From Nitrospirae bacterium GWB2_47_37 (GTDB lineage Bacteria; Nitrospirota; Thermodesulfovibrionia; Thermodesulfovibrionales; Dissulfurispiraceae), in contig MHDU01000011.1 of NCBI GenBank assembly GCA_001803635.1, positions 1-18,748 of the forward strand: DNA of 18,748 nucleotides. Direction: 5' to 3'. Positions 10,055-17,113 of this stretch are shown here, piece after piece. The first letter of the stretch is position 1. The number at the start of each line of letters is the position of its first letter. The position numbers were made by a program, and so were the translations under genes. Under the pieces are notes generated by a model. It was given only the letters and a program-made list of their open reading frames with translations, did not search any database and was not told the DNA's origin.

Positions 10055-11367
10055 TGGGCAAGATAGCGATACTTGTATTTTTGTTGTTCCTCGGAGTCCT
10101 CGGTTTTTTTGCGGTCGAGAACAAAGACGCCGTGATCATGAAAATTCCCTTCGGCGACGCTTATGAGATCCCGAAGATAGCGCTTGTTCTCCTTTCCTCC
10201 ACCATAGGCGCGCTTGCCGTCCTTATCGTGTTTTTTATAAGAGATACGAAACGCGTAATCGAAAATCTCCAGTATCAGAGGAGGCAGAAGAAAGAGGCCA
10301 GGATTCAGGAATTTTATTCCAAGGCGTTGAACGCCATAATGGGCGATAAGGAGGAGGAGGCGCGGGAAGCCCTCGGCGATATATTGAAGGAGGACCCGGA
10401 ATATATAGACGCCCTTTTACGGCTCGGCGACATCTCGCTCAATAACGGAAAATATGAAACCGCGTTCGATTATTACAAAAAGGTGAAGGACATAAACCCG
10501 AAGAATCTACAGGTGCTTTTTTCCATGGAAACAGTGATGGAAAAGCTGCAGAGATACAACGACGCGTTTAATTACCTCGAAGAGATACTCGATCTCGATC
10601 CCGAAAATCTTACCGGGCTCTACAAGAAGCGCTCTCTCCTCGAAAGGAAAGAGATGTGGGACGACCTCCTTTCCACGCAGAAGGCGATAATCAAGCTCGA
10701 ACATAACGAGCACGACAGGCAGCGGGAAGAGCGCAGGATGCTCGGTTATAAATATGAATACGCCCGCGCGAGCCTTGAAAACGGAGATGTTGAAAAGGCG
10801 GAAAAGGCGTTCAGGACAATGCTCAAGATGGACGGTAATTTTGTCCCGGCGCACCTCGGTCTTGCGGAAGTCATACTTATGAAAGGAGAGACCGAGGAGG
10901 CGATAAACTTTCTCGAAAAGGCGTACGAGCAGCTCAGGTCGATAATAATAATCGCTCGCCTTGAAGACCTTCTCATCAACGTAGGAGAACCGGGCAGGCT
11001 TATAAGATTCTATAAAAACGCCATAGCTAAAAATCCTCAGGACAACGGGCTGAGATTTCTCCTCGGCAAGCTCTACTACAGGCTTGAAATGGTCGATGAC
11101 GCCATGGAGATGCTGAATTCAATCGATACCACGGTCTTTTCGGTGCCCGAGCTGTATAGTTTGAAGGGAGAGTTATATATAAAGAGGAGCCAGATACAGA
11201 AGGCGCTGGACGAACTTAAAAAGGCATGCGGCATAAAAAGGCCGTTTAAGATCCAATACTGCTGCTCAAACTGCGGTTTAAAATCCGAAGACTGGTCGGG
11301 AAGGTGTCCCGGATGCACGGAGTGGAATACCTACAGGCTCGACGTTTATGGCTCCTGCAAAGCGTAA
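10054..11367 (+). CDS. lapB: LapB/YciM-like protein: N-terminal TM anchor, TPR repeats, C-terminal rubredoxin-like zinc site
   Basis: N-terminal TM helices, multiple TPR-like repeats (ALNAIMGDKEEEAREAL..., YETAFDYYKKV...), and a C-terminal CCSNCG...RCPGCTEWNTY (CxxC...CxxC) as in LapB. The ATG overlaps the rlmH stop (TGATG). Confidence 0.6.
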   Translation: MGKIAILVFLLFLGVLGFFAVENKDAVIMKIPFGDAYEIPKIALVLLSSTIGALAVLIVFFIRDTKRVIENLQYQRRQKKEARIQEFYSKALNAIMGDKEEEAREALGDILKEDPEYIDALLRLGDISLNNGKYETAFDYYKKVKDINPKNLQVLFSMETVMEKLQRYNDAFNYLEEILDLDPENLTGLYKKRSLLERKEMWDDLLSTQKAIIKLEHNEHDRQREERRMLGYKYEYARASLENGDVEKAEKAFRTMLKMDGNFVPAHLGLAEVILMKGETEEAINFLEKAYEQLRSIIIIARLEDLLINVGEPGRLIRFYKNAIAKNPQDNGLRFLLGKLYYRLEMVDDAMEMLNSIDTTVFSVPELYSLKGELYIKRSQIQKALDELKKACGIKRPFKIQYCCSNCGLKSEDWSGRCPGCTEWNTYRLDVYGSCKA

Positions 11368-12058
11368 AGACAGCGATGAGTTATCAGTGATGAGTGATGA
11401 GTTAAAAAACAAAAAAAAATCAAAGACGAAAAGTAAAAGCTCAAAAGCAAGCACATCACCGTCGTTAAAAGTCGTACTCGATACGAGCCTTTTCGTAAAT
11501 CCGGACGTCAGGACAAGCCTCGGAGCAACCCCCACAGAGGCTTTGGAAACATTCCTTTTTCTGGCGGCGCAGATACATATACTCGAATTCTACATGCCTC
11601 CGTCGATATTCGAAGAACTCCTGCATTTTGTGGAGAGGGACAAGATACCGGCCGATCTCCTTCTTATCTTGCATCAGAAACCGCCTAAAAAACATGAACT
11701 CACGACTCCCGCCTTTCTCTTATACGAATTGATTGAGGACATAAGGGAAAGGGTGAACAAGGGGCTGCGGATAGCAGAAAAGGCCGTAAGGAGTACAGAT
11801 CAAAAAAAGACGGATGAAATCGTTCAGGATATGAGAAGAAAGTACAGGGACGCGCTTAGAGAAGGGATCATCGACAGCAAGGAAGACGTCGATCTCCTGC
11901 TGCTCGCCATGGAACTTGACGCCCTGCTTATCACGGCCGATCAGGGGCTGATAAAGTGGGCCGAAAAATTAGGTGTAAGATGGCTGTTCCCGGAGAAATT
12001 CAAGGAATATTTAATGAGCGCGATAAAAAGAACCGAACTTCTTTCCGCAAAAGAATAA
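11348..12058 (+). CDS. PIN-like HARP family protein (homolog of Aquifex protein-only RNase P) with a Lys/Ser-rich N-terminal extension
   Basis: The core is VVLDTSLFVNPDVR...FYMPPSIFEEL...NKGLRIAEKAV...RRKYRDALREGIIDSKEDVDLLLLAMELDALLITADQGLIKWAEKLG. It closely follows the Aq_880/HARP pattern as I recall it. Residues 1-40 are K/S-rich. An alternative start is the ATG at 11390. Confidence 0.65.
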   Translation: MAPAKRKDSDELSVMSDELKNKKKSKTKSKSSKASTSPSLKVVLDTSLFVNPDVRTSLGATPTEALETFLFLAAQIHILEFYMPPSIFEELLHFVERDKIPADLLLILHQKPPKKHELTTPAFLLYELIEDIRERVNKGLRIAEKAVRSTDQKKTDEIVQDMRRKYRDALREGIIDSKEDVDLLLLAMELDALLITADQGLIKWAEKLGVRWLFPEKFKEYLMSAIKRTELLSAKE

Positions 12059-12076: not shown

Positions 12077-14302
<2,226 letters not shown>

Positions 14303-14304
14303 CT

Positions 14305-14449
14305 GAAAATTTTTTTAATGTCCTAACCCACAATGAAGGTGTCATTATCGACTGTAGTTTTAGTTTGGCTTAGGCTGGACAAACCCAAGCGTACATTCCT
14401 TCATCATATAGGCGTTTTACAATTAAGGCTCTTTTTGATTTTCGCAAAC
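14305..14449 (-). ncRNA. tracrRNA candidate (model 1): anti-repeat at 14449-14417 followed by about 110 nt of hairpin scaffold running toward the cas9 stop
   Basis: Plus strand 14417-14434 reads TTACAATTAAGGCTCTTT, the reverse complement of repeat segment AAAGAGCCTTAACTGTAA with 17/18 matches. Weaker inverted similarity continues to 14449. The one difference is a G-U wobble only for minus-strand RNAs. Hairpins at 14368-14390 and 14330-14348 also gain G-U pairs only on the minus strand. The ends and the strand are inferred, and no clear promoter or terminator was found. Confidence 0.5.
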
Positions 14450-14538
14450 CCCCTGGGGTTTATTTCAAAAGATGGCTTTTAGAAAATTATTGAAAATTTT
14501 CTCTGAAAACTTCTTGAAAATACTAAGCTATAAGGACG

Positions 14539-14645
14539 GTTTCAATCATCATTTTCAAAGAGCCTTAACTGTAATGTGCTGCCGTCCTGTGAGAGGGCTA
14601 TCTGCGGTAGTTTCAATCATCATTTTCAAAGAGCCTTAACTGTAA
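14539..14645. CRISPR. Minimal CRISPR array: two identical 36-nt repeats and one 35-nt spacer
   Basis: GTTTCAATCATCATTTTCAAAGAGCCTTAACTGTAA occurs at 14539-14574 and again at 14610-14645. The spacer is TGTGCTGCCGTCCTGTGAGAGGGCTATCTGCGGTA (14575-14609). The transcription direction is unresolved; the anti-repeat logic favours minus, while the AT-rich upstream region and the GTTT start favour plus. Confidence 0.85.
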
Positions 14646-14654
14646 CGCTCATAT

Positions 14655-14994
14655 AAGCAAGGTCTGTCCGCCGGAGAGGACGGTGTTTTCTCCATCGGTC
14701 GCGCTACTGAACCAACTGACTGTCAGTTAGACGAAACAATCAGAACAGAGTCCCTGCCGGAAACCGTTTCCGGTCGTCCAGCGAACATTGAGAAAGCTGC
14801 GACGCCAGATGCACCTTCCGGTGGGAAGTCCTCCGCTCAAACGCCTGAAGCGTCTCGCAGCCTTTCTGAAACAAATCAAAAAAGCTGAGACAAGATTCCT
14901 TTAAAATAGAGCATCTCAAAGAAAAGTCCCTGCGAGCAATGCGCTTCTTGAAGGAAGCCCCTCTCTAACGTCCGAAACGCTCAGGGACACTAAA
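14655..14994. ncRNA. GC-rich, densely self-complementary non-coding segment between repeat 2 and a degenerate repeat copy; candidate structured RNA of unknown class
   Basis: No ORF of 60 aa or more on either strand. Helices read by eye are 14664-14683 (6 bp), 14757-14773 (CCGGAAA/TTTCCGG, 7 bp), 14792-14866 (17 Watson-Crick bp in four blocks with an apical CTTCC/GGAAG hairpin) and 14926-14988 (GTCCCTG/CAGGGAC enclosing GCTTC/GAAGC). CTGAGA at 14885-14890 can pair with either TCTCA (14914-14918) or TCTCAG (15000-15005). Confidence 0.4.
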
Positions 14995-15030
14995 ATATAT
15001 CTCAGAATTGTAAAAGAGCCTAAACTATAA
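14995..15030. repeat. Degenerate third copy of the CRISPR repeat (direct orientation), 349 nt from repeat 2 and overlapping the cas1 promoter region; alternative anti-repeat if transcribed from the minus strand
   Basis: ATATATCTCAGAATTGTAAAAGAGCCTAAACTATAA matches the repeat at 25/36 positions by hand alignment. The half at 15013-15030 matches 16/18 and the other half 9/18. TATAAT boxes lie on both strands, at 15026-15031 (+) and 15045-15040 (-). Confidence 0.55.
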
Positions 15031-15081
15031 TATGATTACATTATATGCCTTTAAATTTCAAGAGCTTTAGCGGAGGTGGAT

Positions 15082-16275
15082 ATGCAAAGCAATACTTTTA
15101 AAATTTCACGCATCCATCCTGAATACGTGCCTAAAGAAAAATTGCCTCTTGCCCAATTCAATCTTTTTACAAACGAAGCGGAGAGCATTCCCTTATTGAT
15201 CGACAAAGATGTTGACGACGAGATATTTATCGATGAAGGGATTTCTCTGATAAAAAGCGGCGATTCATCGCAGATAGTGTTATCGGGGTTCGGCATTTTT
15301 TTAAGCAAAAAGAGCGAGCGTCTTATTGTAAAGAAAAACACTAAAGTTGTTTATGAGTTTCCCTTTTTCAGGCTGAACGAAGTCATCATGGCTTCCCGCG
15401 GCATATCGCTGTCGTCGGATCTTATAGAGGAATTGTGCGAGAGGGGTATAAGACTGAATTTTCTGAACAACAACGGCAAGCCGTACGCAATGCTTTCTTC
15501 TCCGATGCTCTCCGCAACCGTCATATCAAGAAGAGAGCAGATTATTGCCTTTACCGATACGCGCGGTCTTCAATTCTCAAAAGCTATTGTGGAGGGCAAA
15601 ATCAGAAATCAAGAAAGACTTTTGAGATATTTCGGCAAATATATTAAAACTGTTGACAGCGCCAGGTTTGACAGAATAGAGGAGATAACAGATGTCATTA
15701 GGAAGATGAGCAGGCAGGTGGAAGGTATTCACGGGCAGAGCATTGAAGATGCAAGAGGCAGACTGATGGCAATTGAAGGCGCTTCAGGTAGGCTATACTG
15801 GGACGGCGTTAAGGAGATAATCGGAAATAGAATAGAGTTTTTCGGGCGGGAAACGCGGGGAGCCATTGATGCCGTAAACTCCCTGCTGAATTACGGCTAT
15901 GGGATTTTATATTCCCACGTCTGGGGCGCCGTTATAAACGCCGGGCTTGAGCCGTTTGCGGGGTTTCTTCATGTGGACAGGCCCGGAAAGCCGTCTCTTG
16001 TTTTGGATTTGGTCGAAGAGTTTCGTCAACCTATTATCGATAGGATTGTAATCGCCCATATTAATCTTGGAGAATCAATCGAAATTAGAAATGGCCTGCT
16101 TGAAGCTGAGACCAGAAAGCTGATAGGGAACAAAATTATTGAAAGGCTGGAGAGTCAGGAAACACTTGACGGCAAAAAATATAAAATTAGGTCGATAATC
16201 CAGATGCAGGCCAGAAATTTAGCGGCCTTTCTGAACGGCAAAAGAGAATACAAAACGTTCAGATTTAAGTGGTAA
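15082..16275 (+). CDS. cas1: CRISPR-associated endonuclease Cas1
   Basis: Canonical C-terminal Cas1 motifs EGASGRLYW, AIDAVNSLLNYGYGILY, GFLHVDRPGKPSLVLDLVEEFR. RBS GGAGG at 15072-15076 favours ATG 15082, although the track starts at GTG 15076. Confidence 0.9.
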   Translation: MQSNTFKISRIHPEYVPKEKLPLAQFNLFTNEAESIPLLIDKDVDDEIFIDEGISLIKSGDSSQIVLSGFGIFLSKKSERLIVKKNTKVVYEFPFFRLNEVIMASRGISLSSDLIEELCERGIRLNFLNNNGKPYAMLSSPMLSATVISRREQIIAFTDTRGLQFSKAIVEGKIRNQERLLRYFGKYIKTVDSARFDRIEEITDVIRKMSRQVEGIHGQSIEDARGRLMAIEGASGRLYWDGVKEIIGNRIEFFGRETRGAIDAVNSLLNYGYGILYSHVWGAVINAGLEPFAGFLHVDRPGKPSLVLDLVEEFRQPIIDRIVIAHINLGESIEIRNGLLEAETRKLIGNKIIERLESQETLDGKKYKIRSIIQMQARNLAAFLNGKREYKTFRFKW

Positions 16276-16278
16276 TTG

Positions 16279-16560
16279 ATGGAAGAACATACAGTCTATA
16301 TTTTTTACGATATAGAAGATGACGGCATACGCAATAAGATTGCGGAGAAGTGTAAAGACTATGGGCTCGAAAGAATACAGTTCAGCGGCTTTTCCGGCAT
16401 TTTAAATAGAAACAAGCGGGAAGAACTATTTCTAAGGCTCATTTCTTTAATTGGCGGCAAATCAGGCAAAATTCTTATGCTTCCCTTATGTGAAAGGGAT
16501 ACGAAGGTAAGAAGGGAGTTTATACAGGAAGGACAAGATGATTCAACTGAGGGTCGGTGA
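16279..16560 (+). CDS. cas2: CRISPR-associated endoribonuclease Cas2
   Basis: About 93 aa. The N-terminal beta strand VYIFYDIEDD carries the conserved Asp, and the ferredoxin-like length is right. It starts 4 nt after the cas1 stop (TTG 16276 or ATG 16279). Confidence 0.8.
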   Translation: MEEHTVYIFYDIEDDGIRNKIAEKCKDYGLERIQFSGFSGILNRNKREELFLRLISLIGGKSGKILMLPLCERDTKVRREFIQEGQDDSTEGR

Positions 16561-17113
16561 TCTCAAGCAGTTCGTATATTGTCCAAGAGTCGTGTTCTAC
16601 AATTATGTGATGCCTGTCGAGAAAGTTCCAACCTTCAAGATGGAGCATGGGAAGATAGCAGAGGATAAAATAGACAGGCTTGAGCACAGAAGAAAACTTA
16701 AAAAGTACGGCTTGTCCGGCGGGGAAAGGGAATTCCACTTGAATTTATATTCTCCGAAATATGAGTTATCAGGCAAGATTGATCTGCTTATCAATACTGT
16801 CGGTTCTTATTATCCGGTTGACTTTAAATATACCACCTCGCAGCCGCATAAAAATCATATCTATCAACTTTTGGGGTATGCCCTAATACTTGAAGACATA
16901 TATAAATGCAAAGTCAATAGGGGATTTGTATATATAATTCCCAAAGAGGATGCAATTTCTTTTGACTTAACGGATGATTTGAAGGGCAAAGCAGAAATTT
17001 TGCTTGATGAGATCAGAGATATGATAGCATTGCAGCAAATGCCTGCCCCTGCAAACTCCAGAAATAAATGTGACGACTGCGAATATAGGAATTTCTGCGG
17101 AGATATTTTTTGA
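16538..17113 (+). CDS. cas4: CRISPR-associated exonuclease Cas4 (RecB-like nuclease with a 4-Cys cluster)
   Basis: N-terminal Cys (FVYCPRVVFY), the nuclease motifs GKIDLL and YPVDFKYT, the QxxxY-like IYQLLGYALIL, and a C-terminal CDDCEYRNFC. It overlaps cas2 by 23 nt. Confidence 0.85.
   Translation: MIQLRVGDLKQFVYCPRVVFYNYVMPVEKVPTFKMEHGKIAEDKIDRLEHRRKLKKYGLSGGEREFHLNLYSPKYELSGKIDLLINTVGSYYPVDFKYTTSQPHKNHIYQLLGYALILEDIYKCKVNRGFVYIIPKEDAISFDLTDDLKGKAEILLDEIRDMIALQQMPAPANSRNKCDDCEYRNFCGDIF

Follow-up and report, generated by a model that had tools for sequence, protein, structure and literature searches.

An element antisense to cas9d at a Nitrospirae type II-D CRISPR-Cas locus, read as the tracrRNA contained in the published NbaCas9-1 guide

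The stretch of DNA analysed here, 18,748 nt from Nitrospirae bacterium GWB2_47_37, is referred to below as the window. It constitutes a CRISPR-Cas locus of type II-D that carries an adaptation module, in which cas9d, the tracrRNA, a two-repeat array, cas1, cas2, and cas4 follow one another in that order. The cas genes are the following:

12092–14302, plus strand: cas9d (NbaCas9-1), 736 amino acids, with a TTG start
15076–16275, plus strand: cas1 (Pfam, NCBIfam)
16276–16560, plus strand: cas2 (Pfam, NCBIfam)
16538–17113, plus strand: cas4 (Pfam, NCBIfam)

Directly upstream of cas9d, at 11348–12058, lies the gene for a PIN_5 protein of the "RNA ligase partner" family (PF08745, E 1e-59).

For the cas9d product, the score with the NCBIfam model NF049971 (CRISPR_Cas9d), whose title reads "type II CRISPR RNA-guided endonuclease Cas9d", was 514 bits (cutoff, 375); the NCBIfam match to IscB was below threshold. 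The protein is compact, Pfam recognizes in it the RRXRR, HNH, and Cas9_RuvC domains, and its RuvC is split, which combination is the one that defines a type II-D effector. From the PDB chain 9k32_A it differs solely by the changes D11A and H365A, and the residues at D11 and H365 are invariant across the alignment of the Cas9d family. In addition, the approximately 400 residues given for NbaCas9-1 in the published sequence table (contig MHDT01000042.1, PMC13180657) agree with the window protein, which is 66–69% identical to homologues of the MG34 clade and of the NsCas9d type.

Between cas9d and cas1, the array and its surroundings contain these elements:

14539–14575, minus strand: repeat copy nearest the tracrRNA, a 37-nt unit (repeat search)
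14576–14609, minus strand: the single spacer (array parse)
14610–14646, minus strand: repeat copy GTTACAGTTAAGGCTCTTTGAAAATGATGATTGAAAC, the same sequence as the repeat portion of the published sgRNA
14995–15031, minus strand: degenerate repeat at the cas1-proximal end, 69% identical and 385 nt from the array

An array adjacent to the effector gene, as type II-D requires, is thus represented by two identical repeats (the 36-mers 14539–14574 and 14610–14645) plus the degenerate copy. The repeat unit proper is of 37 nt and starts with G-TTACAG in the copy ending at 14646, and likewise in the majority of the copies found in homologous arrays; accordingly, the reservation expressed in a preliminary description of this DNA—namely, that the repeat read on the minus strand would not begin with the usual GTT—largely disappears. 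The two-repeat array is separated from the degenerate repeat by some 350 comparatively GC-rich nucleotides (14647–14994), which contain a terminator-like hairpin on the plus strand at 14664–14685. In that segment we found no homology to the related loci, none to the DUF5618 gene present at the corresponding site in three of them (L013–L015), and no convincing open reading frame in the minus-strand reading.

The element of main concern lies at the other side of the array, and starts with an anti-repeat:

14416–14434, minus strand: anti-repeat AAAGAGCCUUAAUUGUAAA (repeat search, duplex prediction)

That 14417–14434 would be an inverted copy, at 17 of 18 positions, of the repeat segment AAAGAGCCTTAACTGTAA had been proposed in the preliminary description, and the similarity is real: within the 18.7 kb no other inverted match with two mismatches or fewer exists, the chance expectation for matches of any kind to the repeat segment being 0.01. 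When both are read on the minus strand, 14434–14417 and the 5' end of the repeat, UUACAGUUAAGGCUCUUU, form an 18-bp duplex (P1) that includes one G-U pair, with A14416 facing the first G of the repeat. The only difference within the anti-repeat, a T for a C on the plus strand, yields an A-C mismatch if the plus strand is read and a G-U pair if the minus is, as had been claimed and as can be read directly from the sequence. The window accordingly has the hallmark of a Cas9 tracrRNA, in that it encodes, near cas9 and the array, an anti-repeat able to pair with the repeat; and the succession of a 5' anti-repeat, a spacer-proximal pairing, and a 3' scaffold is obtained in the minus-strand reading only.

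The extension of that duplex up to 14449 by two distal 4-bp blocks, also put forward at the outset, holds in part: the blocks do form in this window, but their pairing is not conserved across loci. The distal tracrRNA side, GTTTGCGAAA, is invariant among the loci and the 3' half of the repeat varies with no compensation; moreover, the energy of the distal duplex summed over 12 loci was -41.8 kcal/mol, versus -40.8 kcal/mol with shuffled repeats, and 41% of the shuffles were at least equal. We therefore rejected distal repeat:anti-repeat pairing up to 14449 as a conserved feature, its energies being those of the shuffled controls. In published truncations, the distal P1 was dispensable (PMC12339737, PMC11903963).

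To extend the comparison beyond this locus we collected Cas9d homologues and fetched 20 further loci through an alignment-based scan and exact-protein look-ups, a single-protein scan of genome contigs having returned no relatives. A profile search of the fetched loci with the minus-strand element of the window (E from 3e-38 to 1e-2) identified a full-length counterpart, antisense to cas9d and mostly immediately downstream of it, in 15 loci. Several of these loci have peculiarities of their own. Just after the anti-repeat, the tracrRNA of three of them has an insertion of about 30 nt (L013, 3430–3470; L014; and L011, 2960–3000), which forms an additional hairpin with a GAAA cap (L013, CAGCAUGAAAAUGCUG; L011, GGCAUGAAAAUGCC) and is a lineage-specific expansion of the scaffold. 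In L013–L015 the DUF5618 gene mentioned above stands between cas1 and the array, on the strand of the tracrRNA and the array and downstream of a conserved promoter block; in L019 and L020 a DUF5678 gene and an ORF of 139 aa stand between cas9d and the tracrRNA. L011 has at 2501–2879 only a short match to Cas9d, of about 125 aa with 86% identity, adjoining an intact-looking tracrRNA homologue and a single repeat; this match may be a decayed cas9d. Finally, in L014, L018, L019, L020, and L011 only one repeat was detected within the retrieved DNA, beside the linker and the tracrRNA, some of the contigs ending soon after; and the single repeat of L019 and of L020 has degenerate first bases, CTTTCAG and CTATTAG, respectively.

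The structure of the element on the minus strand comprises the following parts:

14303–14434, minus strand: tracrRNA segment, anti-repeat plus scaffold, 132 nt, of the published active NbaCas9-1 sgRNA (exact string match)
14398–14404, minus strand: 5' arm of the central stem P2, AUGAAGG, which pairs with 14339–14333
14333–14339, minus strand: 3' arm of P2, CCUUCAU (covariation in the 16-locus alignment)
14368–14390, minus strand: hairpin P3, GCUUGGG-UUUGUCCAG-CCUAAGC, with arms 14390–14384 and 14374–14368
14341–14352, minus strand: small hairpin P4, GUCG-AUAA-UGAC, with arms 14352–14349 and 14344–14341
14377–14381, minus strand: 5' strand of the pseudoknot, UGUCC, in the P3 loop, which pairs with 14323–14319
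14319–14323, minus strand: 3' strand of the pseudoknot, GGACA (covariation in the 16-locus alignment)

The three stems and the pseudoknot were evaluated in an alignment of 16 sequences, the window plus the 15 homologous loci, covariation across such loci having been suggested beforehand as a check. The helices do covary on the minus strand: taken together, 96.1% of the cells are paired and nine pairs change on both sides, with none of 500 shuffles reaching the observed values of either pairing or compensatory changes and with slid controls being paired at only 26–49%. In the 16 loci P2 is 96% paired, with two compensatory pairs and many A-U/G-U switches; P3 is likewise 96% paired, with three compensatory pairs; P4 has compensatory changes in three of its four pairs; and the pseudoknot is 94–100% paired. 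All four helices that characterize the Cas9d scaffold of the MG34 clade are accordingly present, within 14404–14319. The hairpin GCUUGGG/CCUAAGC at 14390–14368, which had been pointed out from the window sequence, is the P3 that covaries in the homologues. A second one had been proposed at 14348–14330 (AAUGA/UCAUU, evaluated at 14347–14331), but its pairing of 76.8%, with no compensatory change at all, does not exceed that of the shuffles; we consequently discarded that hairpin, the stretch being instead P4 together with the 3' arm of the long-range stem P2. The functional 3' limit of the element probably falls at about 14310–14319, as the mean pairwise identity, which is 82% within the scaffold, is only 43% once the pseudoknot has been passed on the 3' side. 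An Rfam scan of 14000–15200, with E values up to 10, gave chance-level matches only and no tracrRNA family, which result reflects the coverage of the library and not function, as no Rfam model fits this scaffold.

The same element is found in the literature. For NbaCas9-1, Kannan et al. (2025, Nat Biotechnol; PMC13180657, Supplementary Table 1) give an sgRNA scaffold that consists of GTTACAGTTAAGGCTCTTTGAAAATGATGATTGAAAC, a GAAA loop, and AAAGAGCCTTAATTGTAAAACGCC...GGACATTAAAAAAATTTTCAG. A string search located the 132-nt tracrRNA part of that scaffold, with an exact match, on the minus strand from 14434 to 14303, and the repeat part, also exactly, on the minus strand from 14646 to 14610. The layout claimed in the preliminary description, with a 5' anti-repeat at 14434–14417 and a 3' scaffold reaching to about 14305, is therefore that of the published guide; and the experiment proposed there—an sgRNA made of a spacer, the repeat beginning UUACAG, a loop, and minus-strand 14434–14305—had in effect been published, and had worked (PMC13180657). 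In that study, an in vitro screen gave NGG as the PAM of NbaCas9-1, and at a VEGFA site in HEK293FT cells the indels were approximately 0.5–1.0%, with the nontargeting control at about 0; editing in human cells by this protein is thus low, about 1%. The scaffold has been shown to bind Cas9d and to license NGG-dependent cleavage of DNA. The minus-strand model can be considered as already validated, because the published sgRNA has the same sequence and is active. We regard it as almost certain that the element is the tracrRNA of this Cas9d locus, encoded on the strand opposite to cas9d and already known to its exact sequence. The published design, which corresponds to the same locus and the same element, omits 14435–14449 as well as the linker that separates the element from the array, and is silent on native transcription.

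The other Cas9d systems with established guides agree with this assignment. NsCas9d, also called NbaCas9-2 (Nitrospirae bacterium RBG_13_39_12; PMC12339737; PDB 9LGI), has a protein with 67% identity to the window Cas9d and an element that is likewise antisense to cas9d and just downstream of it (L003). Its P1 is the identical 18-bp duplex, including the G.U wobble, the cryo-EM structure having revealed 17 Watson-Crick pairs, the wobble G27.U56, and a G21-A62 mismatch (PMC12339737). Its sgRNA contains P2, P3, P4, and the pseudoknot as in the window, with 102 identical positions over 123 columns, and its nucleotides 146–149 (GGAC) pair with the P3 loop (PMC12339737). The differences are in the segment between P3 and P4, longer by 8 nt in the window (CAAACUAAAA), and in the 3' half of the repeat. 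The sgRNAs of MG34-1, MG34-9, and MG34-16 (Aliaga Goltsman et al., 2022; PMC9755519) belong to the same family, with the same architecture and an NGG PAM, and the MG34-related Cas9d proteins that we recovered are about 66% identical to that of the window. The MG34-1 tracrRNA shares 97 identical positions with the window over 126 columns; in its cryo-EM structure (PMC11903963; bioRxiv 10.1101/2024.04.08.588528) a 4-bp tetraloop stem corresponds to the P4 of the window, and the P1 wobble and the pseudoknot are described as well. Environmental RNA-seq mapped the array and the tracrRNA region of MG34-1 in a single orientation, and cleavage assays confirmed the orientations (PMC9755519). The validated scaffolds were located exactly, at homologous minus-strand positions, in L008 (MG34-1), L001 (MG34-9), L021 (MG34-16), and L003 (NbaCas9-2/NsCas9d).

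Beyond type II-D, canonical tracrRNAs exist as separate small RNAs that are processed together with the pre-crRNA by RNase III. As in the window, those of the II-A and II-C systems (Streptococcus pyogenes, Neisseria meningitidis, Clostridium cellulolyticum) begin with an anti-repeat, to which a Cas9-binding scaffold is joined on the 3' side, and pair with the spacer-proximal part of the repeat; and in some II-C loci transcription of the array runs counter to that of the cas genes (PMC7038990), as it would here. The window differs from the canonical II-A/II-C systems in having a longer scaffold with an omega-RNA-like pseudoknot fold and a tracrRNA that follows the array immediately and shares its strand. 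For its part, the 5' portion of the IscB omega-RNA resembles the fold of the NsCas9d scaffold, pseudoknot included (PMC12339737); but the omega-RNA combines guide and scaffold in one transcript, longer than 200 nt, with no CRISPR array, whereas the guide in the window comes from an array accompanied by cas1, cas2, and cas4.

The assignment of strand and of function had to be weighed against two other readings. According to one of these, the array and the anti-repeat would be read in the direction of cas9d, the crRNA repeat would begin with GUUUCAAUC, and 14450–14538 would be either the scaffold or a classical leader; and for that reading speak the GTTTC with which the plus-strand repeat starts, the AT-rich and conserved region of 89 nt at the position of a classical leader, and a hairpin at about 14444–14470, AAACCCCCTGGGGTTT followed by TTTATTTC, that on the plus strand weakly resembles a terminator. 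In that orientation, nevertheless, the perfect duplex is placed far from the spacer, and the substitution within it would be an A-C mismatch. The same asymmetry pervades the scaffold, where the four helices contain 46 G-U cells versus 7 A-C cells, so that the strand must be the minus: 96% of the cells pair on that strand and 85% if the plus is read. Furthermore, minus-strand 14303–14434 folds with -29.4 kcal/mol (z -2.1), whereas the plus-strand fold, with -21.6 kcal/mol (z +0.28), does not surpass the shuffles. In the minus-strand reading, identity between loci is 96% over the first 21 nt of the repeat and 72% over the remainder, which conservation of the 5' half is to be expected if the spacer-proximal half is the part that is paired with the tracrRNA and in contact with Cas9d. 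In addition, all five of the working sgRNA designs retrieved for the Cas9d family, the one of this locus among them, use the minus strand. The plus-strand reading is thus effectively refuted, and we consider it highly improbable. The remaining objection, that the inverted match arose by chance or is what is left of an inverted CRISPR repeat in decay, and lacks any function as an RNA, can invoke that just 18 nt of the 36- to 37-nt repeat match well; yet, in view of the chance expectation cited above, of the conservation with covariation of the element and its 3' flank in 15 other loci, and of the functioning of the element in the published sgRNA (PMC13180657), that objection is refuted and its probability is negligible. 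For the minus-strand tracrRNA, covariation, the G-U/A-C asymmetry, and folding energy all agree, and the outcome matches the published working guide RNA.

A different matter is how this RNA would be produced in the native organism, for which consideration three further features of the minus strand are relevant:

14450–14538, minus strand: linker of 89 nt from the last repeat to the tracrRNA region (alignment of 16 loci)
14438–14449, minus strand: conserved block GTTTGCGAAAAT, 12 nt just 5' of the anti-repeat, with 95% mean pairwise identity in 16 loci
15032–15061, minus strand: promoter-like block TTGAAA-18-TGtAATCAT, oriented away from cas1 and towards the array

The 89-nt gap from the end of the repeat at 14539 to 14449 had been given correctly in the preliminary description. 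The linker is nearly constant in length, give or take a base or two, and can be aligned in all 16 loci, with a mean pairwise identity of 69% overall and of 77% in the 44 nt proximal to the tracrRNA. The block GTTTGCGAAAAT is absent from all five retrieved sgRNA sequences, and its pairing with the repeat was at chance level in 12 loci. A conserved hairpin, AAACCCnnnnGGGTTT, was observed inside 14438–14538, a region that might serve as a tracrRNA promoter, as an acquisition leader, or as a signal for processing.

With respect to transcription signals, the promoter-like block (CTTGAAATTT...TATAATGTAATCATATTA), located between the start of cas1 and the array, is kept in 10 homologous loci; homologues were noted in L003, L004, L005, L011, L013–L015, L019, and L020. 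In most of the loci with that block, the window included, the degenerate repeat begins at the predicted start site. This block plausibly supplies a candidate promoter for the pre-crRNA on the strand of the model. A canonical intrinsic terminator was found neither 3' of the scaffold nor between the array and the tracrRNA, and no strong sigma-70 promoter was present directly upstream of the anti-repeat; the lack of a convincing promoter or intrinsic terminator had been acknowledged as a weakness from the start. The motif TGcGAAAAT at 14446–14438 resembles an extended -10 and is possibly one. A repeat-embedded extended -10 of the type II-C kind was rejected, since the repeat is variable in its 3' part and TGnTAnnnT is not conserved.

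In this system, the 5' anti-repeat at 14434–14417 pairs with the spacer-proximal half of the minus-strand crRNA repeat to form P1, and the 3' part folds into the Cas9d scaffold through P2, P3, P4, and the pseudoknot that joins UGUCC in the P3 loop to GGACA near the 3' end; as we picture it, the array would be transcribed on the same strand as the tracrRNA, starting from the conserved promoter-like block beside cas1. Alternatively, in place of a tracrRNA gene of its own, the same RNA element might belong to a single minus-strand transcript comprising array, linker, and tracrRNA, as the preliminary description had suggested, whose last spacer-repeat unit would fold onto the anti-repeat and act in cis as a single guide, the others being served after processing. 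This possibility is backed by the coincidence in strand of the array and the tracrRNA, joined by a conserved linker of nearly constant length in 16 of 16 loci with no terminator detected between them; by the conserved promoter-like block upstream of the array; by the fold predicted for the read-through RNA from 14609 to 14303, which would adopt an sgRNA-like shape in cis with -79.2 kcal/mol (z -3.7); and by the MG34-1 RNA-seq, which spans the array and the tracrRNA region in one orientation (PMC9755519). Against it, RNAalifold found in the linker only two weak helices with zero compensatory pairs, and the conservation of the linker could equally be due to a role at the DNA level, as a promoter or an acquisition leader; the motif at 14446–14438, if an extended -10, could give the tracrRNA an independent start near 14431; and one copy of the tracrRNA per transcript would be insufficient for arrays of up to 29 spacers, as in L005. 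Nor do the terminal guides have a self-target: no 10- to 12-nt seed match of the repeat-adjacent "guide" exists elsewhere in any locus, for which reason an autoregulatory natural guide was also rejected. On balance, we consider a single transcript of this sort rather unlikely.

The position of the repeats bears on the alternative role of the linker. Degenerate repeats occur at the promoter-proximal, cas1-side end of the array in the window (14995–15031) and in L003 (near 4497), L004 (4700–4760), and L005 (near 7211), and perfect repeats occur at the tracrRNA-proximal end in these same four loci. This disposition points to the transcription-distal end as the site where new spacers are added; and with the degenerate repeats distal to the tracrRNA, the usual rule would place the acquisition leader at that end of the array which adjoins the linker. 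No spacer is shared between any two of the loci, so that polarity is deduced solely from the position of the degenerate repeats. That the linker and the invariant GTTTGCGAAAAT reflect expression of the array and the tracrRNA as one unit in Cas9d loci of the MG34 type, or that the linker is an acquisition leader towards which the array is transcribed, or both, is a proposal that we put forward with a correspondingly small degree of confidence.

NbaCas9-1, a compact Cas9d, has already served in editing and has supplied an engineered IscB with a REC domain, and the identification of its tracrRNA brings no new biology as such. That the strand, the boundaries, and the wobble pair were correctly read from the sequence alone nevertheless speaks well for the first-stage method that produced the preliminary description. 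What novelty remains is in the native biogenesis and in the conserved linker, as neither the coexpression of array and tracrRNA nor the linker as a leader is addressed in the Cas9d papers cited here. If the proposal concerning the linker were true, the last spacer-repeat unit would fold in cis with the tracrRNA as a natural single guide, and would represent an omega-RNA-like intermediate between IscB and the dual-RNA Cas9.
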